This document shows positions 3,440 to 9,721 of a DNA stretch of 14,548 nucleotides, piece by piece. Under the pieces are notes generated by a model that did no database searches, was not told where the DNA came from, and saw only the letters and a list, made by a program, of their open reading frames with translations. The first letter of the stretch is position 1, and the number at the start of each line of letters is the position of its first letter. Origin of the DNA: a virus (lineage: Duplodnaviria; Heunggongvirae; Uroviricota; Caudoviricetes); IMG/VR virus record IMGVR_UViG_2529293142_000010. One strand, 5' to 3'. Both the position numbers and the translations under genes were made by a program.

Positions 3440-5428
3440 CTAACCCACCCTCACCTGATTACTTCGCATGACCTGAGCATTTGCAGACTGTTGCCGACGT
3501 GCAACCTCATTACCGACAGCGTGCGGATCTCCGCCACCGTAAATGTGGTAGGTATTTTGCTGGTTAACCTCTGTCACTTTGCCACTAATTCCCGCCACGG
3601 CAGCCTTATTAATCAGCTCTCGAGAATAGATATTTCTTCCATTCTCATGCTGGATAATGCTGCTCATCAATGCTGACATGGTTTGCGGATCGCTCATATT
3701 CAGGGCAGCCCGGGGATCCACTCCCAGTCGTTGCGATACAGCCCTGATATACGCGGTTGTGTTGTTATTATCAGACGCAGGTGCCCAGGTAGAGATAATT
3801 TTCTCCACACTGTTTATTCCCCGTCCGGCGTACAGCATTAACTGACGAGCAAGAGCCCGTAATCCATCAAAAGCGGTTTCAAATCTGGCAAATCGCCCGC
3901 CCGGGCGTTCAAGAGAAGCCCCAGCCTGACCAGCAAAATTAAGATTTCCCGGATTGTTATTCCGTTCTCCTCGTTTCGTAGCCTGTGCATGTTGTTCCGG
4001 CTCATCATCACCAAACCAGCCGCGTACCGTCCGGCCCACACTGCGGGGATCAAATCCCCAGTGCTCTTTAATCCAGTCGGCAGTACTGTTAGCGCTGTCT
4101 GTAACCATCGGCATCGCTGACGGATTTTCGCTGCCCTGATTAAGTATCTGTTTGCCGATGCTGACGGCATCAGCCCAGCGGCCATCTTTGATAGCGTTGA
4201 GCAGGTCGGCGATCATGTTCAGCATTTTGCTGAATTCGCCCATCTGGTCGATGAAGTTGCTGAAATCCCACTTCAGGGACCATGATTTGGGGTCAATATT
4301 GAGCAGTTTCGCCAGCGCTTTCACCAGGTCGTTAACGGTCGTTTCAAGGTCACGAACCATCTTCAGCGCGGCATCAACCTCCGGTTTCCACTTGCCCCAG
4401 TCAATCAGGCTGTCGCCGCCTTCCTTCCAGGTCTGATAGTCCTCCCACAGGAGGGCAATCCCCGCCGCCAGCGCGGTAATGAGGCCAATCGGCGACATCC
4501 AGAACGTACTGTTCAGAATGCGCAGCGCAATCGTCAGTGCGCCAAACAGCGAGATCAACTCCCGCGTTTGCTTATCCAGCGATTGCCACCAGGTGATGAG
4601 GCCTGATGTCCCCTCAATCAGTCTGAAGAACAACCGCCCGATAATATCCCCGAGCGCCAGAATGCCTTTTATGGCTTTCGTCAGGGTCTGCTCGATACGC
4701 GGGAAGTTGTCCAGGATATGGCGGCGCAGAGTGTCCAGCGAACCCGCAAGCCCACCCGCAAGATTAGAGCCGATTTTGTCACGGGCCATGCCTGCCATCG
4801 CGCCAAACTCACGCAGGGAGGTCATAAATTTGTTGGAGCTTCTGGCCGCCTCGTCAGCATTGAAGCCGATAGCTTTCGCCATTGCGCTGTACTGCCCGGA
4901 GAAGCCACCCACACCGCGACGCACAGCCATCAGGGTATTTTCGTCAATGCCCAGCATCTGCGCATACTGGTTAGCACGGTAATACGGCATGTCGCTGAGC
5001 TTCTGGCCTACCCCTGTAAAAATAGCGGCCATGTCACGCATGTTACCGCTGGCATCCCGTGTCTGTACCCCCAGACGATTCAGAAATCCCTCCGCCCCGG
5101 GATTATTACGAATAAACCGGGAGAGGTTTTCCAGAGAAGATCGCGCAGCGTCCACGCTGCCGCCAACCTGCGAAACCGCATAGCCAATAGACTGAATTCC
5201 CTGGACTGTCGCTCCGGTGCGCTGTGACGCCCAGTAAAGATTATCCAGACCGGAGGCGATCTTAGCCGTGAAGGCCACCACGGACAGCGCAGTTCCTTCG
5301 ACGGCCAGCCCCATTTTGATGACATTTGCAGTTGTACCGGCGAGGACAGAACCGAATTTTTTCGCTCCTGCATCATCCACACTGAAGCCAAGCGAGACGA
5401 GGAAATCTTTAATAGTTTCAGCGTTCAT
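3440..5428 (-). CDS. Tail tape measure protein, about 662 aa
   Basis: Large ORF directly downstream of the frameshifted chaperone; Ala/Gly-rich helical N-terminal part; internal hydrophobic segments (LISLFGALTIALRILNSTFWMSPIGLITALAAGIALLW). The ORF-track start at 5449 is a TTG; the first ATG is at 5428, preceded by GGAGAGAGG. Confidence 0.85.
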   Translation of the reverse strand: MNAETIKDFLVSLGFSVDDAGAKKFGSVLAGTTANVIKMGLAVEGTALSVVAFTAKIASGLDNLYWASQRTGATVQGIQSIGYAVSQVGGSVDAARSSLENLSRFIRNNPGAEGFLNRLGVQTRDASGNMRDMAAIFTGVGQKLSDMPYYRANQYAQMLGIDENTLMAVRRGVGGFSGQYSAMAKAIGFNADEAARSSNKFMTSLREFGAMAGMARDKIGSNLAGGLAGSLDTLRRHILDNFPRIEQTLTKAIKGILALGDIIGRLFFRLIEGTSGLITWWQSLDKQTRELISLFGALTIALRILNSTFWMSPIGLITALAAGIALLWEDYQTWKEGGDSLIDWGKWKPEVDAALKMVRDLETTVNDLVKALAKLLNIDPKSWSLKWDFSNFIDQMGEFSKMLNMIADLLNAIKDGRWADAVSIGKQILNQGSENPSAMPMVTDSANSTADWIKEHWGFDPRSVGRTVRGWFGDDEPEQHAQATKRGERNNNPGNLNFAGQAGASLERPGGRFARFETAFDGLRALARQLMLYAGRGINSVEKIISTWAPASDNNNTTAYIRAVSQRLGVDPRAALNMSDPQTMSALMSSIIQHENGRNIYSRELINKAAVAGISGKVTEVNQQNTYHIYGGGDPHAVGNEVARRQQSANAQVMRSNQVRVG

Positions 5429-5657
5429 TATCCTCTCTCCATTTCTCAATGCGCCGCTGGTTATCCGCTTTTACCGCCAGATGGTCATTCAAGAGAGCAA
5501 TGTCATACAAATCGACAGAGCCATCTTTAAGTGCTGTATAGGGAATTAACCCGGCGTCAACCGGATTGAGAAGGTAGGACAGCCCGTCCGGCAGGCTGTT
5601 AAACGTCAGCCCTGTTGCAGGCTCTGCGTCGTGCTGGTAAGGGGTGTAGGCAAAAAA
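5425..5657 (-). other. -1 frame extension of the tail assembly chaperone (GT-like fusion product); slippery heptamer T_TTT_TTG at 5657-5651
   Basis: The chaperone reads ...GGA AAT TTT TTG...; after a -1 slip the frame stays open for about 77 codons across the otherwise non-coding 177 nt between the chaperone stop and the tape measure start, ending at TGA 5427-5425 beside the tape measure ATG. Confidence 0.65.
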
Positions 5658-6058
5658 TTTCCCAGCGAATCGGCGACCACCCGCGCCACCAGATGAAGCA
5701 TGACCAGCAAGTCAATATCATCAAACATCAGTTCGCCATGGGTAAATACCGGCACCCATCCGTCCATATGACGCCGCGATACCACCGCAAGACAGGGATG
5801 AATAATCGCATCGGTGTCATCTTCGGTCAGGGAAGACAGTTCCTCAGCGATACGCGGGAGCATGGTTTCAAACACCGGTTTTAACTGCTCGAATTTCACG
5901 GTGTCGATTTTGCCATCAGCAGGCAAACGGGAGCGAATGCTCCCGAAATCTGACATCATTCCCGCCAGTACCGGCAGAAGTTTGCGGGTCACTTTCAGCT
6001 GGTCAAAAACGCTGAGTTTTGCCGTGCGATATTTCACACCTTTGATTTCGAATTCCAT
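5606..6058 (-). CDS. Tail assembly chaperone (G-like), 150 aa
   Basis: ORF track; located between the tube-like gene and the tape measure gene; followed by a long open -1 frame. Confidence 0.75.
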   Translation of the reverse strand: MEFEIKGVKYRTAKLSVFDQLKVTRKLLPVLAGMMSDFGSIRSRLPADGKIDTVKFEQLKPVFETMLPRIAEELSSLTEDDTDAIIHPCLAVVSRRHMDGWVPVFTHGELMFDDIDLLVMLHLVARVVADSLGNFLPTPLTSTTQSLQQG

Positions 6059-6061
6059 GTA

Positions 6062-6502
6062 TTAAAACTCCCCGAGAACCTGGTCAATCTTGCCGCAGTC
6101 AAACACCCACGGCATCGTATTACCGGTTTTAGCGTTGGCGTTATCCGGTTGTTTCTGGAACGCAACACTGCGTGCCGTGATGATGTCGCCGCTGACCTTG
6201 TTGCGGATCACGATAACGTTATTCCCCCATGTGGCAGAAGACTGGCTCTGTGCGTTATACGCCAGCGACAATTTTTTATTTGTCGGTGATGTCTTCAGAA
6301 GGTTAACGGTAATCGTCCCGCTTTTTTCTGCATGGAGGCTGTGCATTACTTCACCATCAGCACCGATGGTCATGGTGTTTTTAGGACCGCCCATCGCAAC
6401 CACAATCCCCTCTTCAGAACTTGCAGAACCGTACCCGAGGTCAATCGAACCGGTCGGCCCGGTCAGCGTCGCAGTGACATCCATAAAAGAATAGGTAGAC
6501 AT
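6062..6502 (-). CDS. Tail tube-like protein, 146 aa (resembles what I recall as the DUF3277 family)
   Basis: ORF track; ATG start; size and position between the sheath-like gene and the chaperone, matching the sheath-tube-chaperone-tape measure order of contractile-tail phages. Confidence 0.7.
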   Translation of the reverse strand: MSTYSFMDVTATLTGPTGSIDLGYGSASSEEGIVVAMGGPKNTMTIGADGEVMHSLHAEKSGTITVNLLKTSPTNKKLSLAYNAQSQSSATWGNNVIVIRNKVSGDIITARSVAFQKQPDNANAKTGNTMPWVFDCGKIDQVLGEF

Positions 6503-6512
6503 TCACTTCCCC

Positions 6513-7658
6513 TTAGCGAACAACGTTAATCTGTACGTCAGCGTAATGAACCGCGCCTGCAAGTTTTATTGCAGCCTGAATCACCGGAGCCTTACGGGCT
6601 TCACGTTCTGATTGTGCCTGTTCATCCAGCGGCTGGGCGTATACGTAATAACCTTTGGGCAGTGTGTCACCTGATGACAACTGACCAAGGTCGCCCCCGT
6701 TCCATACACCCGGAGCAATCAGTCCATTCTGAACGGCCTGATCCAGTGATTTTTCAACATTTGATAACAGTCGGGTAATACCGGCTTCAGTCTGGGGAAC
6801 TTTCGTGGTGCTGGTATAAAGCAGGTTATAGAGGTTGGTCTGCACATAATTCTGTAACCAGTCCAGGCCGTGGCGTTCATCAAAGAAATCGCCGTTAGCC
6901 ATCACTCCCTGCTGGAGGATAGCCGTATCATTCTGGTAGTACACGAATACATTGCAGTTTTTTGCATCAAGTGCCGATGCCTGGCTGACTGTCAGTGTTT
7001 CATACCCGACACCCGGCTCCTGCTTAAACTTGAGCGTAATCGCGGTATTACTGCCATTGAAATTAACCGTGAATGCCCGGCCAAATGCAGATAACGCAGC
7101 GTATTTATTACCCGATGAATACTGAATAAAACTGCGTGAATATCCGGCATTTTTCAGTTTTGATGCCAAATCATCGCTGGATGCAGTCTGCAGGCATTTC
7201 TCATCGCTTGTCGTAATCGCCAGAATACGGCTTACAGAAGAGGATTCGATCGCCGCAGCCACTTTCAGCCAGTCTGCATCCGGAATATCTTCATCGTCTG
7301 CAATCCCCAGCCCATACCATGAAGTATAATCGAGCATGGCATTCACAGCCTGCTCCAGCGTCTCAGGCGTGGCCTGTTCGCTGTCTCCCTTCGTTTTCAC
7401 CCAACGACCAACAAAAACCTCCTGAGGTTTCGGTGATTGAGAGAAAAACACCTGCGCAGCCTTATATTCTGGTGATTCCACGCCAAAATCTTTTCCAATA
7501 TCTTCCGCGGCAGAATAACGGCGAATGCGCTCACTTACCGGAATGATTGTGGACGGGCCGAGAATGAGTAATGCACCAAAATTTCGCCCTGATGCTGCAC
7601 GCGGCGACATGATCACATCAACATTAACAACGTTTGATACAGGCAAGCCCTGTGCCAT
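6513..7658 (-). CDS. Tail sheath-like or major tail protein, 381 aa (resembles what I recall as the DUF3383 family)
   Basis: ORF track; ATG start; size and position immediately upstream of the tube-like gene. Confidence 0.7.
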
Positions 7659-9534: not shown

Positions 9535-9721
9535 TTTTTACCTCGTTACGCGCGTCTGTGGCTTTGCCAACGGATACTTCCGCGTGCGCACGAGTGAACC
9601 AGTGCGTGGCAACGTCTTCCTCCACAGCATGACGGCCTTTAACAAACTCGCGCCGTGAACCGTCGGGAAGCGTGAGCACAAACGGGGTATGTACGTGTAT
9701 TACTGCATTATTTTTTGCCAT
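9500..9721 (-). CDS. Small hypothetical phage protein, 73 aa, Lys-rich C-terminus
   Basis: ORF track; ATG start; lies between the capsid and adaptor genes; 35-nt overlap with the downstream gene start. Confidence 0.5.

Follow-up and report, generated by a model that had tools for sequence, protein, structure and literature searches.

A conserved candidate -1 frameshift in a tail assembly chaperone gene from a SEN34-like Escherichia coli prophage

Gene Order and Occurrence of the Locus

The DNA analyzed here (hereafter the window) is a stretch of 14,548 nucleotides of a tailed virus (IMG/VR record IMGVR_UViG_2529293142_000010), in which the genes for sheath, tube, chaperone and tape measure follow each other in this order on the minus strand. 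The sheath gene (6513-7658), which belongs to a myovirus-type tail, matched Pfam PF11863/DUF3383 (E = 4.5e-101) and phrog_205 ('tail sheath'). The tail tube gene (6062-6502; Pfam PF11681, E = 8.6e-61) lies directly upstream of the chaperone. The zero-frame ORF of the tail assembly chaperone (5606-6058) begins with an ATG at 6058, ends with a TGA at 5608-5606 and encodes a short form of 150 aa. It was recognized as Pfam Phage_TAC_15 (PF21822) over residues 6-138 (E = 2.9e-30; 105.8 bits against a gathering threshold of 22) and as phrog_1688, 'tail assembly chaperone' (E = 1.5e-64), and RefSeq names it 'phage tail assembly chaperone'. From its stop to the next ATG there is a gap of exactly 177 nt (5605-5429). 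The gene that follows (3440-5428, 662 aa) starts with the ATG at 5428-5426, as does the RefSeq CDS, and its match to phrog_2276, 'tail length tape measure protein' (E = 1e-281), supports its reading as the tape measure gene, as the initial annotation had proposed.

The region 5300-6200 matched CB9615 at 99.9%, and chaperone, slippery run and extension (see below) are all intact in the window. Phages with E. coli as recorded host matched the chaperone region at 98%, and of 5426 complete E. coli genomes, 315 (about 6%) carry this region. Also, comparison of the window with the closest complete genome revealed several single-base indels, and among the tail genes at least that at 2547-1484 is broken.

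The -1 Frame Extension

The initial annotation had described a -1 frame open for about 77 codons from a heptamer at 5657-5651, filling the 177-nt gap, and all these coordinates hold on the minus strand. After T_TTT_TTG there are 77 sense codons in the -1 frame (5651-5421), followed by a TGA at 5420-5418. Counted from the TTT at 5654, the extension (5418-5654) comprises 78 codons and the stop, and the start of the tape measure gene overlaps its end by 11 nt. Upstream, the -1 frame is already open from 5711, that is, 19 codons before the slip site.

The 78-aa peptide encoded in this frame matched Pfam DUF6889 (PF21829, E = 1.2e-20; 73.4 bits against a gathering threshold of 23.9) and phrog_4364 (E = 1.9e-23), the domain occupying its residues 38-76 (5427-5543). 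The predicted long form of the chaperone has 213 aa, with the extension as its C-terminal part. A database protein, P0037, whose gene has T7 in place of T6, equals the predicted fusion (...SLGNFFAYTPYQ...). Stops make up 7.0% of the -1-frame codons in the 17 minus-strand ORFs, which gives P ~3.5e-3 for 78 stop-free codons; since the window also contains an unrelated open -1 run of 95 codons (1768-1483), the open frame alone is weak evidence. What lifts the observation above chance is the match of the peptide to DUF6889 and phrog_4364, together with the conservation of the arrangement.

The Slippery Run

The shift site lies in a run of 13 nt, G_GGA_AAT_TTT_TTG (5663-5651, minus strand), which is invariant in 9 phages of the enterobacterial clade (about 53-98% identity to the fusion product by tblastn). 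It contains three overlapping zero-frame heptamers: G_GGA_AAT (5663-5657), A_AAT_TTT (5660-5654) and T_TTT_TTG (5657-5651). The zero frame of the chaperone reads ...CTG GGA AAT TTT TTG CCT..., so that T_TTT_TTG stands in X_XXY_YYZ phase. Such in-phase heptamers were counted at 14 of 3943 codon positions. The slippery site named in the initial annotation, T_TTT_TTG, is present and in phase; it is, however, only one of three candidates.

In the 9 phages, the codons GGA AAT TTT TTG showed zero synonymous variation, and nearly all other conserved codons vary. Because all four codons of the run are synonymously invariant, A_AAT_TTT would be at least as likely a shift site as T_TTT_TTG. In two of the 9 phages, the -1 frame is closed by a stop three codons upstream of the run, which restricts where the shift can take place. 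In E. coli reporters without a stimulator, these three heptamers gave 0.07-0.12% shift, which is near background, and adding a pseudoknot did not bring U_UUU_UUG up to 1% (Sharma et al., 2014, Table S3). Owing to these reporter values, the efficiency of the shift in the chaperone gene could be very low, or the shift could rely on some further stimulator.

Conservation across Relatives

Among 161 loci that have both domains, with identities down to about 30%, the DUF6889 part is in frame -1 with respect to the chaperone in 157. The initial annotation had named loss of the -1 frame among homologues as what would speak against a frameshift, and this is not what was found. The four remaining loci are one close relative with an indel and three in-frame fusions (L084, L085, L110), of which L084 is devoid of any T-run; as these three fusions indicate, not every lineage needs the frameshift. 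Across the family, the extension measures 74-85 codons and in most relatives a long ORF begins between -11 and +4 nt from its stop.

Diverse relatives were drawn from a scan of viral contigs with an alignment of the fusion. In 62 of 71 distinct relatives, the homologous codon has an in-phase X_XXY_YYZ heptamer, in the form of T_TTT_TTN, C_CCT_TTY, A_AAT_TTT or G_GGT_TTT, and all but one of the relatives with a heptamer share a U_UUY core. TTT accounted for 76% of the Phe codons at the site and for 32% elsewhere (Fisher p = 5e-16), in loci with a median of 60% G+C. The description of the site as a conserved chaperone recoding signal is supported both by the frame and by the heptamer.

All 40 phage records found by tblastn with the fusion product align to it in two pieces, and single-ORF proteins of about 190-210 aa, with about 30% identity, align through the predicted junction. 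The chaperone and DUF6889 domains are parts of one polypeptide, because single-ORF proteins span the junction, L084 is a fusion and P0037 corresponds to the predicted product. Altogether, the position of the element, the startless domain and its conservation came out as the programmed -1 frameshift proposed in the initial annotation would predict.

Search for Stimulators

The initial annotation had suggested a search for a downstream hairpin or pseudoknot, and neither folding, RNAalifold nor Rfam revealed one. Single-sequence folds of the downstream region were no more stable than those of shuffled sequences (z-scores of 0.07 and -0.03), and the nearest hairpin starts 20 nt past the heptamer, where a spacing of 5-9 nt is expected in a cassette. 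On the 9 phages, RNAalifold gave a consensus energy of only -0.37 kcal/mol for a conserved downstream structure. Rfam gave no relevant match on the shift region, the sole match being a chance one to mir-46 (E = 0.38). In a 181-nt fold, a structure spanning the slip site (CUGGUGG... paired with ...CCUUACCAG) was set aside, since a ribosome about to shift would enclose its upstream arm or have passed it.

Upstream of the run, the segment GGGUGGUC (5675-5682, minus strand) is complementary to the 3' end of 16S rRNA and is a candidate upstream stimulator by its predicted duplex and its invariance. The duplex of GGGUGGUC with GAUCACCUCCUUA is predicted at -12.2 kcal/mol, the strongest of its kind on the minus strand of the whole window, and its codons CGG GTG are synonymously invariant in the 9 phages. 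The predicted pairing involves the GAUCACC part of the 16S tail and not CCUCC. From the 3' end of the segment to the three heptamers, the distances are 11, 14 and 17 nt, or 16, 19 and 22 nt if it is aligned on the canonical GGAGG core. For an SD-like stimulator across the family, profiling by position with a short anti-SD probe gave no significant signal. A zone test with a longer 16S tail gave means of -6.2 vs -5.1 kcal/mol (p = 5e-4), a modest enrichment calculated from sequences that are non-independent. GGGUGGUC is a possible 5' stimulator of the shift, suggested by complementarity and codon invariance.

Alternative Explanations

The two frames could also be joined by the RNA polymerase, which would add one U on T6 and give a minority of mRNAs with fused frames, like that of P0037. 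Such transcriptional slippage would suit the T6 homopolymer at the site, T7 or T8 in some relatives, and the T7 DNA variant, which encodes exactly the fusion. Homopolymer runs are known slippage sites (PMC5009743; PMC4066793), and for T4-like chaperone genes a non-ribosomal mechanism has been proposed (Vladimirov et al., 2022, as cited by PMC12846349). Nevertheless, 29 of the 71 distinct relatives have only T3-T4 and 21 of these 29 keep an in-phase heptamer; the phase of the heptamer is conserved although it is irrelevant to transcription, and synonymous invariance extends to GGA and AAT, outside the T-run. Efficient transcriptional slippage in E. coli takes runs of about 8-9 or more. As a family-wide mechanism it was rejected, since the T-runs of at most 4 at the 29 sites are too short for polymerase slippage. 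We consider polymerase slippage very unlikely to be what joins the two frames, with room for a minor contribution at the T6 of the chaperone gene.

Even less probable, in our opinion, is that the -1 ORF forms a separate small gene, translated into a DUF6889 protein of 50-60 aa from a start of its own, e.g., the CTG at 5582. This is how RefSeq and many GenBank records present it. In near-identical E. coli genomes, RefSeq/PGAP carries a stand-alone 54-aa 'DUF6889 family protein' (5418-5582, CTG start; WP_071819661.1, locus L001, 9619-9783), and the many other stand-alone homologues were called with 43-108 aa, most of them 50-63, often under the name 'NTP pyrophosphohydrolase'. The initial annotation had reported the extension as missing from the ORF track, which holds only in part for public records, as RefSeq has it as a separate small gene and two GenBank phages have the joined product. 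However, a search of the -1 frame found neither ATG nor GTG, and the first TTG falls within the DUF6889 domain, which it would truncate. The annotated starts vary between records, as is typical of gene callers guessing. Between slip site and domain core, 44 of 72 distinct relatives are devoid of any ATG, GTG or TTG, and only one of the 72 has a start with an SD-like sequence there. Also, protein conservation starts right at the junction and not at the annotated start. If the gene were independent, the slippery site would have no reason to be conserved. The RefSeq gene is probably an annotation artefact of an unrecognized frameshift.

That the element is a relic in a decaying prophage, its frames as described and nothing functional made in the source host, is hardly credible: the single-base indels across the window and its broken tail gene (2547-1484) would fit, but the chaperone, the run and the extension are intact and match both CB9615 and the E. 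coli phages, the region recurs in E. coli genomes as given above, and decay would bear on expression in one host and not on the identity of the frameshift element.

Proposed Mechanism

We interpret the locus, with high confidence, as the tail chaperone gene of a SEN34-like (Brunovirus-type) temperate E. coli myovirus prophage, which would be expressed as a short form and a -1 frameshifted long form. What the sequences show directly are the two frames, the homologies of the domains, the missing start of the extension and the conservation of the -1 arrangement and its slippery site; we infer the slippage itself, its efficiency, the heptamer that is used and the roles of both forms. The majority of ribosomes would stay in the zero frame as far as the TGA at 5608-5606 and release the 150-aa short chaperone, expected at about 16.5 kDa. 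A minority would slip one nucleotide back on G_GGA_AAU_UUU_UUG (5663-5651) and translate 77 further codons in the -1 frame, finishing at 5420-5418, atop the start codon of the tape measure gene. The resulting 213-aa long form, expected at about 23.5 kDa, would consist of chaperone residues 1 to about 135, a flexible linker and the helical DUF6889 domain. A long form with Phe at position 136 (...SLGNFFAYTPYQHD...) would be expected from a shift on A_AAU_UUU or G_GGA_AAU, or from P-site slippage before decoding of UUG, and one with Leu at this position (...SLGNFLAYTPYQHD...) from tandem slippage on U_UUU_UUG. If the roles resemble those of lambda gpG/gpGT, the tape measure protein would be coated by the N-terminal part that both forms share, the C-terminal domain that the rare long form carries would bring in the tube protein and so start tail polymerization, and both forms would be absent from the final virion.

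A more tentative proposal, which we hold to be rather doubtful, is that this is a stimulator-poor cassette that would owe its efficiency to the three stacked invariant heptamers and maybe to the upstream pairing of GGGUGGUC with 16S rRNA. If this were true, ribosomes would shift on A_AAU_UUU or G_GGA_AAU instead of the P2-type U_UUU_UUG, and the gene would offer a dnaX-like, 5'-stimulated chaperone frameshift. The whole Pfam DUF6889 family, and with it the genes named 'NTP pyrophosphohydrolase' or 'DUF6889 family protein' in many Enterobacterales records and in RefSeq E. coli genomes, would then be artefacts of annotation that represent the C-terminal domain of a frameshift product.

Significance for Annotation

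The chaperone frameshift changes no concept, and its value lies mainly in annotation. It confirms the identity of the chaperone and tape measure genes in a type of prophage carried by about 6% of complete E. coli genomes. In RefSeq and in many further records, the long chaperone loses its C-terminal domain to a separate small gene, which has a non-canonical start or the misnomer 'NTP pyrophosphohydrolase'. Pfam DUF6889 could be re-described as the C-terminal domain of long-form Phage_TAC_15 chaperones; our literature search found no paper naming DUF6889 or Phage_TAC_15. The gene also adds one more chaperone frameshift without 3' structure, and its three overlapping heptamers, together with a candidate 5' rRNA-pairing motif, make it a clean test case for site efficiency.

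Comparison with Known Systems

The type for -1 chaperone pairs, with lambda G/GT and P2 E/E+E' as examples, was reportedly set by Xu, Hendrix and Duda in 2004. The sequence features of this type, i.e., the position of the gene, a startless -1 ORF, an in-phase heptamer and conservation, are all found in the window. A pair of this type would also supply both proteins, alike in their N-terminus, at a fixed ratio in vivo, each of them required for tail assembly and missing from the virion. The initial annotation had called the chaperone 'G/GT-like', which stands as an analogy but not as a family assignment: a Pfam scan at E <=0.01 gave only Phage_TAC_15 and DUF6889, without any similarity to lambda gpG/gpT or P2 gpE/E' families, and for the extension, whose homology to GT or E' had been suggested as a check, it gave DUF6889 only. 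The heptamer of lambda, G_GGA_AAG, resembles the G_GGA_AAT of the window. In lambda G/GT, the N part is the binding partner of the tape measure and the C part that of the tube protein (PMC5009743). Lambda is a siphovirus, whereas the phage of the window has a myovirus-type tail, and for the window such roles of the parts are an assumption.

In P2, E/E+E' is made by a -1 shift at TTTTTTG without downstream structure (PMC3091744). P2 shares with the window the myovirus tail, a chaperone gene placed just before the tape measure gene and the same TTTTTTG heptamer; its proteins are shorter, with 91 aa for E and 142 aa for E+E' vs 150 and 213 aa in the window. The two additional overlapping heptamers are not known from P2.

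A 5' Shine-Dalgarno-like stimulator of -1 shifts acts at 9-14 nt from the shift site (PMC5009743). The E. coli dnaX and IS-element cassettes have such a 5' stimulator, and the window may share with them an upstream rRNA-pairing element; unlike these cassettes, it is without a 3' hairpin and its predicted pairing is with GAUCACC and not with CCUCC.

For the chaperone genes of Vandenendeviridae and Andersonviridae (Pseudomonas phage Adele), a -1 frameshift has been proposed, the -1 frame being open in all relatives with a conserved T-run near the 3' end (PMC12846349). As in the window, the ORF between chaperone and tape measure is routinely misannotated there as a hypothetical gene. The motif in these phages is GTTTTT, and the likeness to the window considered here is one of arrangement.

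The closest comparison is offered by two phages in which a 'tape measure chaperone frameshift product' is annotated, Klebsiella phage Mulock (MN098327, QFG06717.1; 58% tblastn identity to the fusion) and Burkholderia phage Magia (MT701587, QPB08698.1; 36%). Their joined products are predictions, not experiments. In the window's own lineage (E. coli RefSeq genomes, vB_EcoM-606R2, SEN34, YP3), the joined product is not annotated. Both phages have the gene order and the -1 join of the window, within the same protein family. The slippery run of Mulock, GGGAAATTTTTTG, is identical to that of the window, and Magia has only C_CCT_TTT, at the place of the window's A_AAT_TTT. The frameshift arrangement of the chaperone gene is real and conserved, but it is ordinary, and it is already annotated in related phages.

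Organization of the Chaperone Locus

Read along the minus strand, the genes stand in the order sheath, tube, chaperone ORF, gap and tape measure. The tail sheath gene (6513-7658, -) matched Pfam DUF3383 (PF11863, E 4.5e-101) and phrog_205, the tail tube gene (6062-6502, -) matched PF11681 (E 8.6e-61), and the chaperone ORF (150 aa, 5606-6058, -) matched Phage_TAC_15 (PF21822, 105.8 bits vs a 22-bit cut-off) as well as phrog_1688 "tail assembly chaperone." The next gene (662 aa, ATG at 5428, -), proposed in the initial annotation to encode the tape measure protein, does so according to its phrog_2276 match (E 1e-281). Of 5426 complete E. coli genomes, 315 contain the region. Positions 5300-6200 share 99.9% identity with a prophage in E. 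coli O55:H7 strain CB9615. Identity to the region is 98% in four Escherichia phages whose recorded host is E. coli (vB_EcoM-606R2 and relatives), 84% in Yersinia phage YP3 and 77% in SEN34, a Salmonella phage of the genus Brunovirus.

Elsewhere in the window, the tape measure protein has a lytic transglycosylase-like C-terminal region (~3440-4000, C-terminal third of the gene); residues ~466-650 match phrog_873, phrog_7182 and phrog_7694, and RefSeq names the homologs "lytic transglycosylase." Also, single-base indels relative to CB9615 occur at about 11696, 11227, 9736, 3291, 3049, 3028, 1992, 1861, and 360, attributable either to misassembly at short runs of G/C or to decay of the prophage. 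The pair at 1992 (near 1991/1992) and 1861 shifts ~130 nt of a tail/baseplate gene (354 aa; 1484-2547, -) out of frame, and the resulting stop (1977-1975) splits it into two apparent ORFs (1975-2547; 1483-1941). The stretch 9550-9710, near small head-tail genes (in CB9615, the STY1053-family and DUF4054 region), aligned poorly to CB9615, and ~100 nt are missing from the window there.

Reading Frames at the Putative Slip Site

The zero frame at the site reads ...CTG GGA AAT TTT TTG CCT ACA..., which places the heptamer T_TTT_TTG (5657-5651, -), proposed in the initial annotation as a -1 frameshift site, in X_XXY_YYZ phase. The geometry described there was also accurate: the -1 frame continues for 77 sense codons past the heptamer to a TGA (5420-5418) located 8 nt past the first base of the tape measure ATG, and fills the gap of exactly 177 nt (5605-5429, -). 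Two further in-phase heptamers, absent from the initial annotation, overlap it: A_AAT_TTT (5660-5654) and G_GGA_AAT (5663-5657). Additional in-phase X_XXY_YYZ heptamers occur inside minus-strand ORFs at 7584 (A_AAT_TTT, sheath gene), 12436 and 11076 (both T_TTT_TTC), 835, 760, 616, 14197, 6963, and 3950.

The -1 frame is open already from 5711. By composition alone, an open frame here is only mildly surprising (P ~3.5e-3 for 78 stop-free codons at a local off-frame stop rate of 7%), and -1 frames of this length do open by chance in the window, as shown by an unrelated 95-codon run (1768-1483, -, within ORF 1483-1941) whose W/R/H/C-rich translation is typical of off-frame sequence. What raises the observation above chance is homology, since the peptide read in the -1 frame hits both phrog_4364 and Pfam DUF6889 (PF21829, E 1.2e-20, 73.4 bits vs 23.9).

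Conservation of the Arrangement in Relatives

The locus has two frames, both with domain homology, no independent start for the second, and a conserved -1 relationship between them. Separate HMMs for the N and C parts were used to score all stop-to-stop segments of all loci, including 80 diverse viral contigs retrieved with a C-domain motif. The C part lay in the -1 frame in 157 of the 161 loci having both parts, the remaining four being three in-frame fusions and one close relative with an indel. The -1 frame, whose absence from homologs would by the initial annotation have counted against the frameshift, is clearly conserved. Among the distinct diverse loci, the extension measures 74-85 codons in all, the zero-frame tail past the site 7-25 codons, and in most a long ORF begins -11 to +4 nt from the extension stop.

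A search of the conceptual fusion against 1.84 billion representative proteins returned 1358 relatives. Several are single-ORF proteins of ~190-210 aa with ~30% identity, aligned continuously over the predicted junction; each is a rare singleton taken from an automatic assembly. The closest, P0037, reads ...SLGNFFAYTPYQ..., identical to the predicted product, and is encoded by a copy of the window's locus with T7 in place of T6; it may be taken as a picture of the shifted product, not as proof of shifting. In a few distant relatives (L084:2398-3091; also L085 and L110) the chaperone and DUF6889 parts share one continuous frame. L084 lacks any T-run at the junction (..LRAYLAYKPAKF..) and is apparently a genuine fusion; this lineage may produce the long form only, or obtain the short form by another route.

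The Slippery Site

The in-phase slippery site is conserved, with suppressed synonymous change. An in-phase X_XXY_YYZ heptamer occupied the homologous codon in 62 of 71 distinct diverse loci (C_CCT_TTT 19, T_TTT_TTT 17, T_TTT_TTC 13, C_CCT_TTC 9, T_TTT_TTG 8, A_AAT_TTT 7, G_GGT_TTT 3), and a U_UUY core or more was found in all but one. In these relatives, of median 60% G+C, TTT accounted for 76% of Phe codons at the site vs 32% elsewhere in both coding parts (Fisher p 5e-16).

Across the nine members of the enterobacterial clade (the window, YP3, SEN34, Mulock, GZ7, ST340-VIM1phi10.1, Omnitron, yong1, EKP1; tblastn identity to the fusion product ~53-98%), the 13-nt run G GGA AAT TTT TTG showed no variation. 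Synonymous variation was usual in the 46 alignment columns with an identical degenerate amino acid in all nine phages (mean pairwise codon difference mostly 0.4-0.8), and was zero only at G133 (GGA), N134 (AAT), F135 (TTT), L136 (TTG), R126 (CGG), V127 (GTG), E2, and D81. As T_TTT_TTG needs just the last T of AAT, the invariant GGA and AAT point to selection also acting on A_AAT_TTT and/or G_GGA_AAT. Across the family as a whole, some lineages have only the A_AAT_TTT-equivalent position (e.g., Burkholderia phage Magia, GGC CCT TTT ATC), others only the T_TTT_TTG-equivalent one (e.g., GGT TTT TTG).

In E. coli, frameshifting without a stimulator, with that of IS911 and with that of IS3 reaches 0.118, 0.247, and 0.765% for U_UUU_UUG, 0.070, 0.355, and 11.4% for A_AAU_UUU, and 0.069, 0.112, and 1.05% for G_GGA_AAU (Sharma et al., 2014, PMC4066793, Table S3). 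T_TTT_TTG is a legitimate candidate for the shift site but no likelier than the overlapping A_AAU_UUU. The choice of heptamer affects the product at residue 136 at most, as either Phe or Leu. Two relatives have a stop in the -1 frame three codons 5' of the run, which restricts the shift to the run.

Candidate Stimulatory Elements

A downstream hairpin or pseudoknot, suggested as a check in the initial annotation, was found neither in single-sequence folds nor by RNAalifold or Rfam. The 91 nt 3' of the site folded no better than shuffles (z 0.07), the closest hairpin beginning 20 nt downstream; the 181-nt context gave z -0.03, RNAalifold on the nine phages gave -0.37 kcal/mol with covariation absent, and Rfam had no relevant match at the locus.

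Upstream, GGGUGGUC (5682-5675, -) has the strongest predicted pairing with the 16S 3' tail (-12.2 kcal/mol) on its strand in the whole 14.5-kb window, and coincides with the synonymously invariant codons CGG GTG (R126, V127; region 5675-5690, -). Counted from its 3' end, the spacing to the heptamers is 11, 14, and 17 nt; the published spacing for upstream stimulation of -1 shifts is 9-14 nt (PMC5009743). We retain it as a candidate stimulator only, because its predicted partner in the rRNA is GAUCACC and not CCUCC, the spacing aligned on the canonical core is longer (16, 19, and 22 nt), and family-wide enrichment of 16S-complementary upstream motifs is modest.

Proposed Mechanism and Alternative Explanations

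We consider it very probable that the locus undergoes -1 ribosomal frameshifting. A minority of ribosomes would slip on the run at 5663-5651 (-), giving a 213-aa long form beside the 150-aa short form. By analogy with lambda gpG/gpGT (PMC5009743), the shared N part would bind the tape measure protein, the DUF6889 domain would recruit the tube protein, and both forms would be absent from the virion. The AlphaFold2 model of the fusion (8-sequence alignment, pLDDT 80.7, pTM 0.73) predicts an N-terminal domain of mixed alpha/beta structure (1-137) and a helical C-terminal domain (161-212), joined by a linker of low confidence (146-157) that starts a few residues past the junction.

Transcriptional slippage is very improbable: a minor route at the window's T6 is still conceivable, but for the family it is implausible, as the T-run is four or shorter at 29 of 71 sites, 21 of which keep an in-phase heptamer. 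A stand-alone DUF6889 gene, as called in many records, is highly improbable and was rejected on start codons and conservation at the junction: the -1 frame contains no ATG or GTG, a start at the earliest TTG (codon 49 of 78) would truncate the conserved domain, 44 of 72 loci have no ATG/GTG/TTG between site and domain core, and one of 72 has a start there with an SD-like sequence. That the locus is a dead relic is barely credible.

Annotation and Comparison With Known Systems

In near-identical E. coli genomes, RefSeq presents the extension as a gene of its own (5418-5582), a 54-aa "DUF6889 family protein" that starts at CTG; elsewhere it is an empty gap or an "NTP pyrophosphohydrolase," a name that nothing here supports. 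Such small-protein calls (many Enterobacterales records; database relatives P0002-P0033) have inconsistent N-termini and range from 43 to 108 aa, most 50-63. The frameshift is of a textbook kind, and within the Phage_TAC_15/DUF6889 family GenBank already annotates it in Magia and in Klebsiella phage Mulock, whose 13-nt run is that of the window and whose joined CDS (QFG06717.1) is named "tape measure chaperone frameshift product." We found no paper naming DUF6889 or Phage_TAC_15, the paper on SEN34 is silent on the frameshift, and a 2025 paper argues equivalently for a different group of myoviruses (PMC12846349). What is gained is a correction to the annotation and a neat case for testing frameshifting without a 3' stimulator.

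The locus belongs to the tail assembly chaperone frameshifts conserved in long-tailed phages. The label "G/GT-like" of the initial annotation is apt for the way it would work, which is that of lambda G/GT, but not for sequence: a Pfam scan at E <= 0.01 returned only Phage_TAC_15 and DUF6889, so that the chaperone is no sequence relative of lambda G/GT or P2 E/E+E' at this level. The closer likeness is to P2, also a myovirus, where no downstream structure was found either and the same TTTTTTG (U_UUU_UUG) is the heptamer used (PMC3091744).
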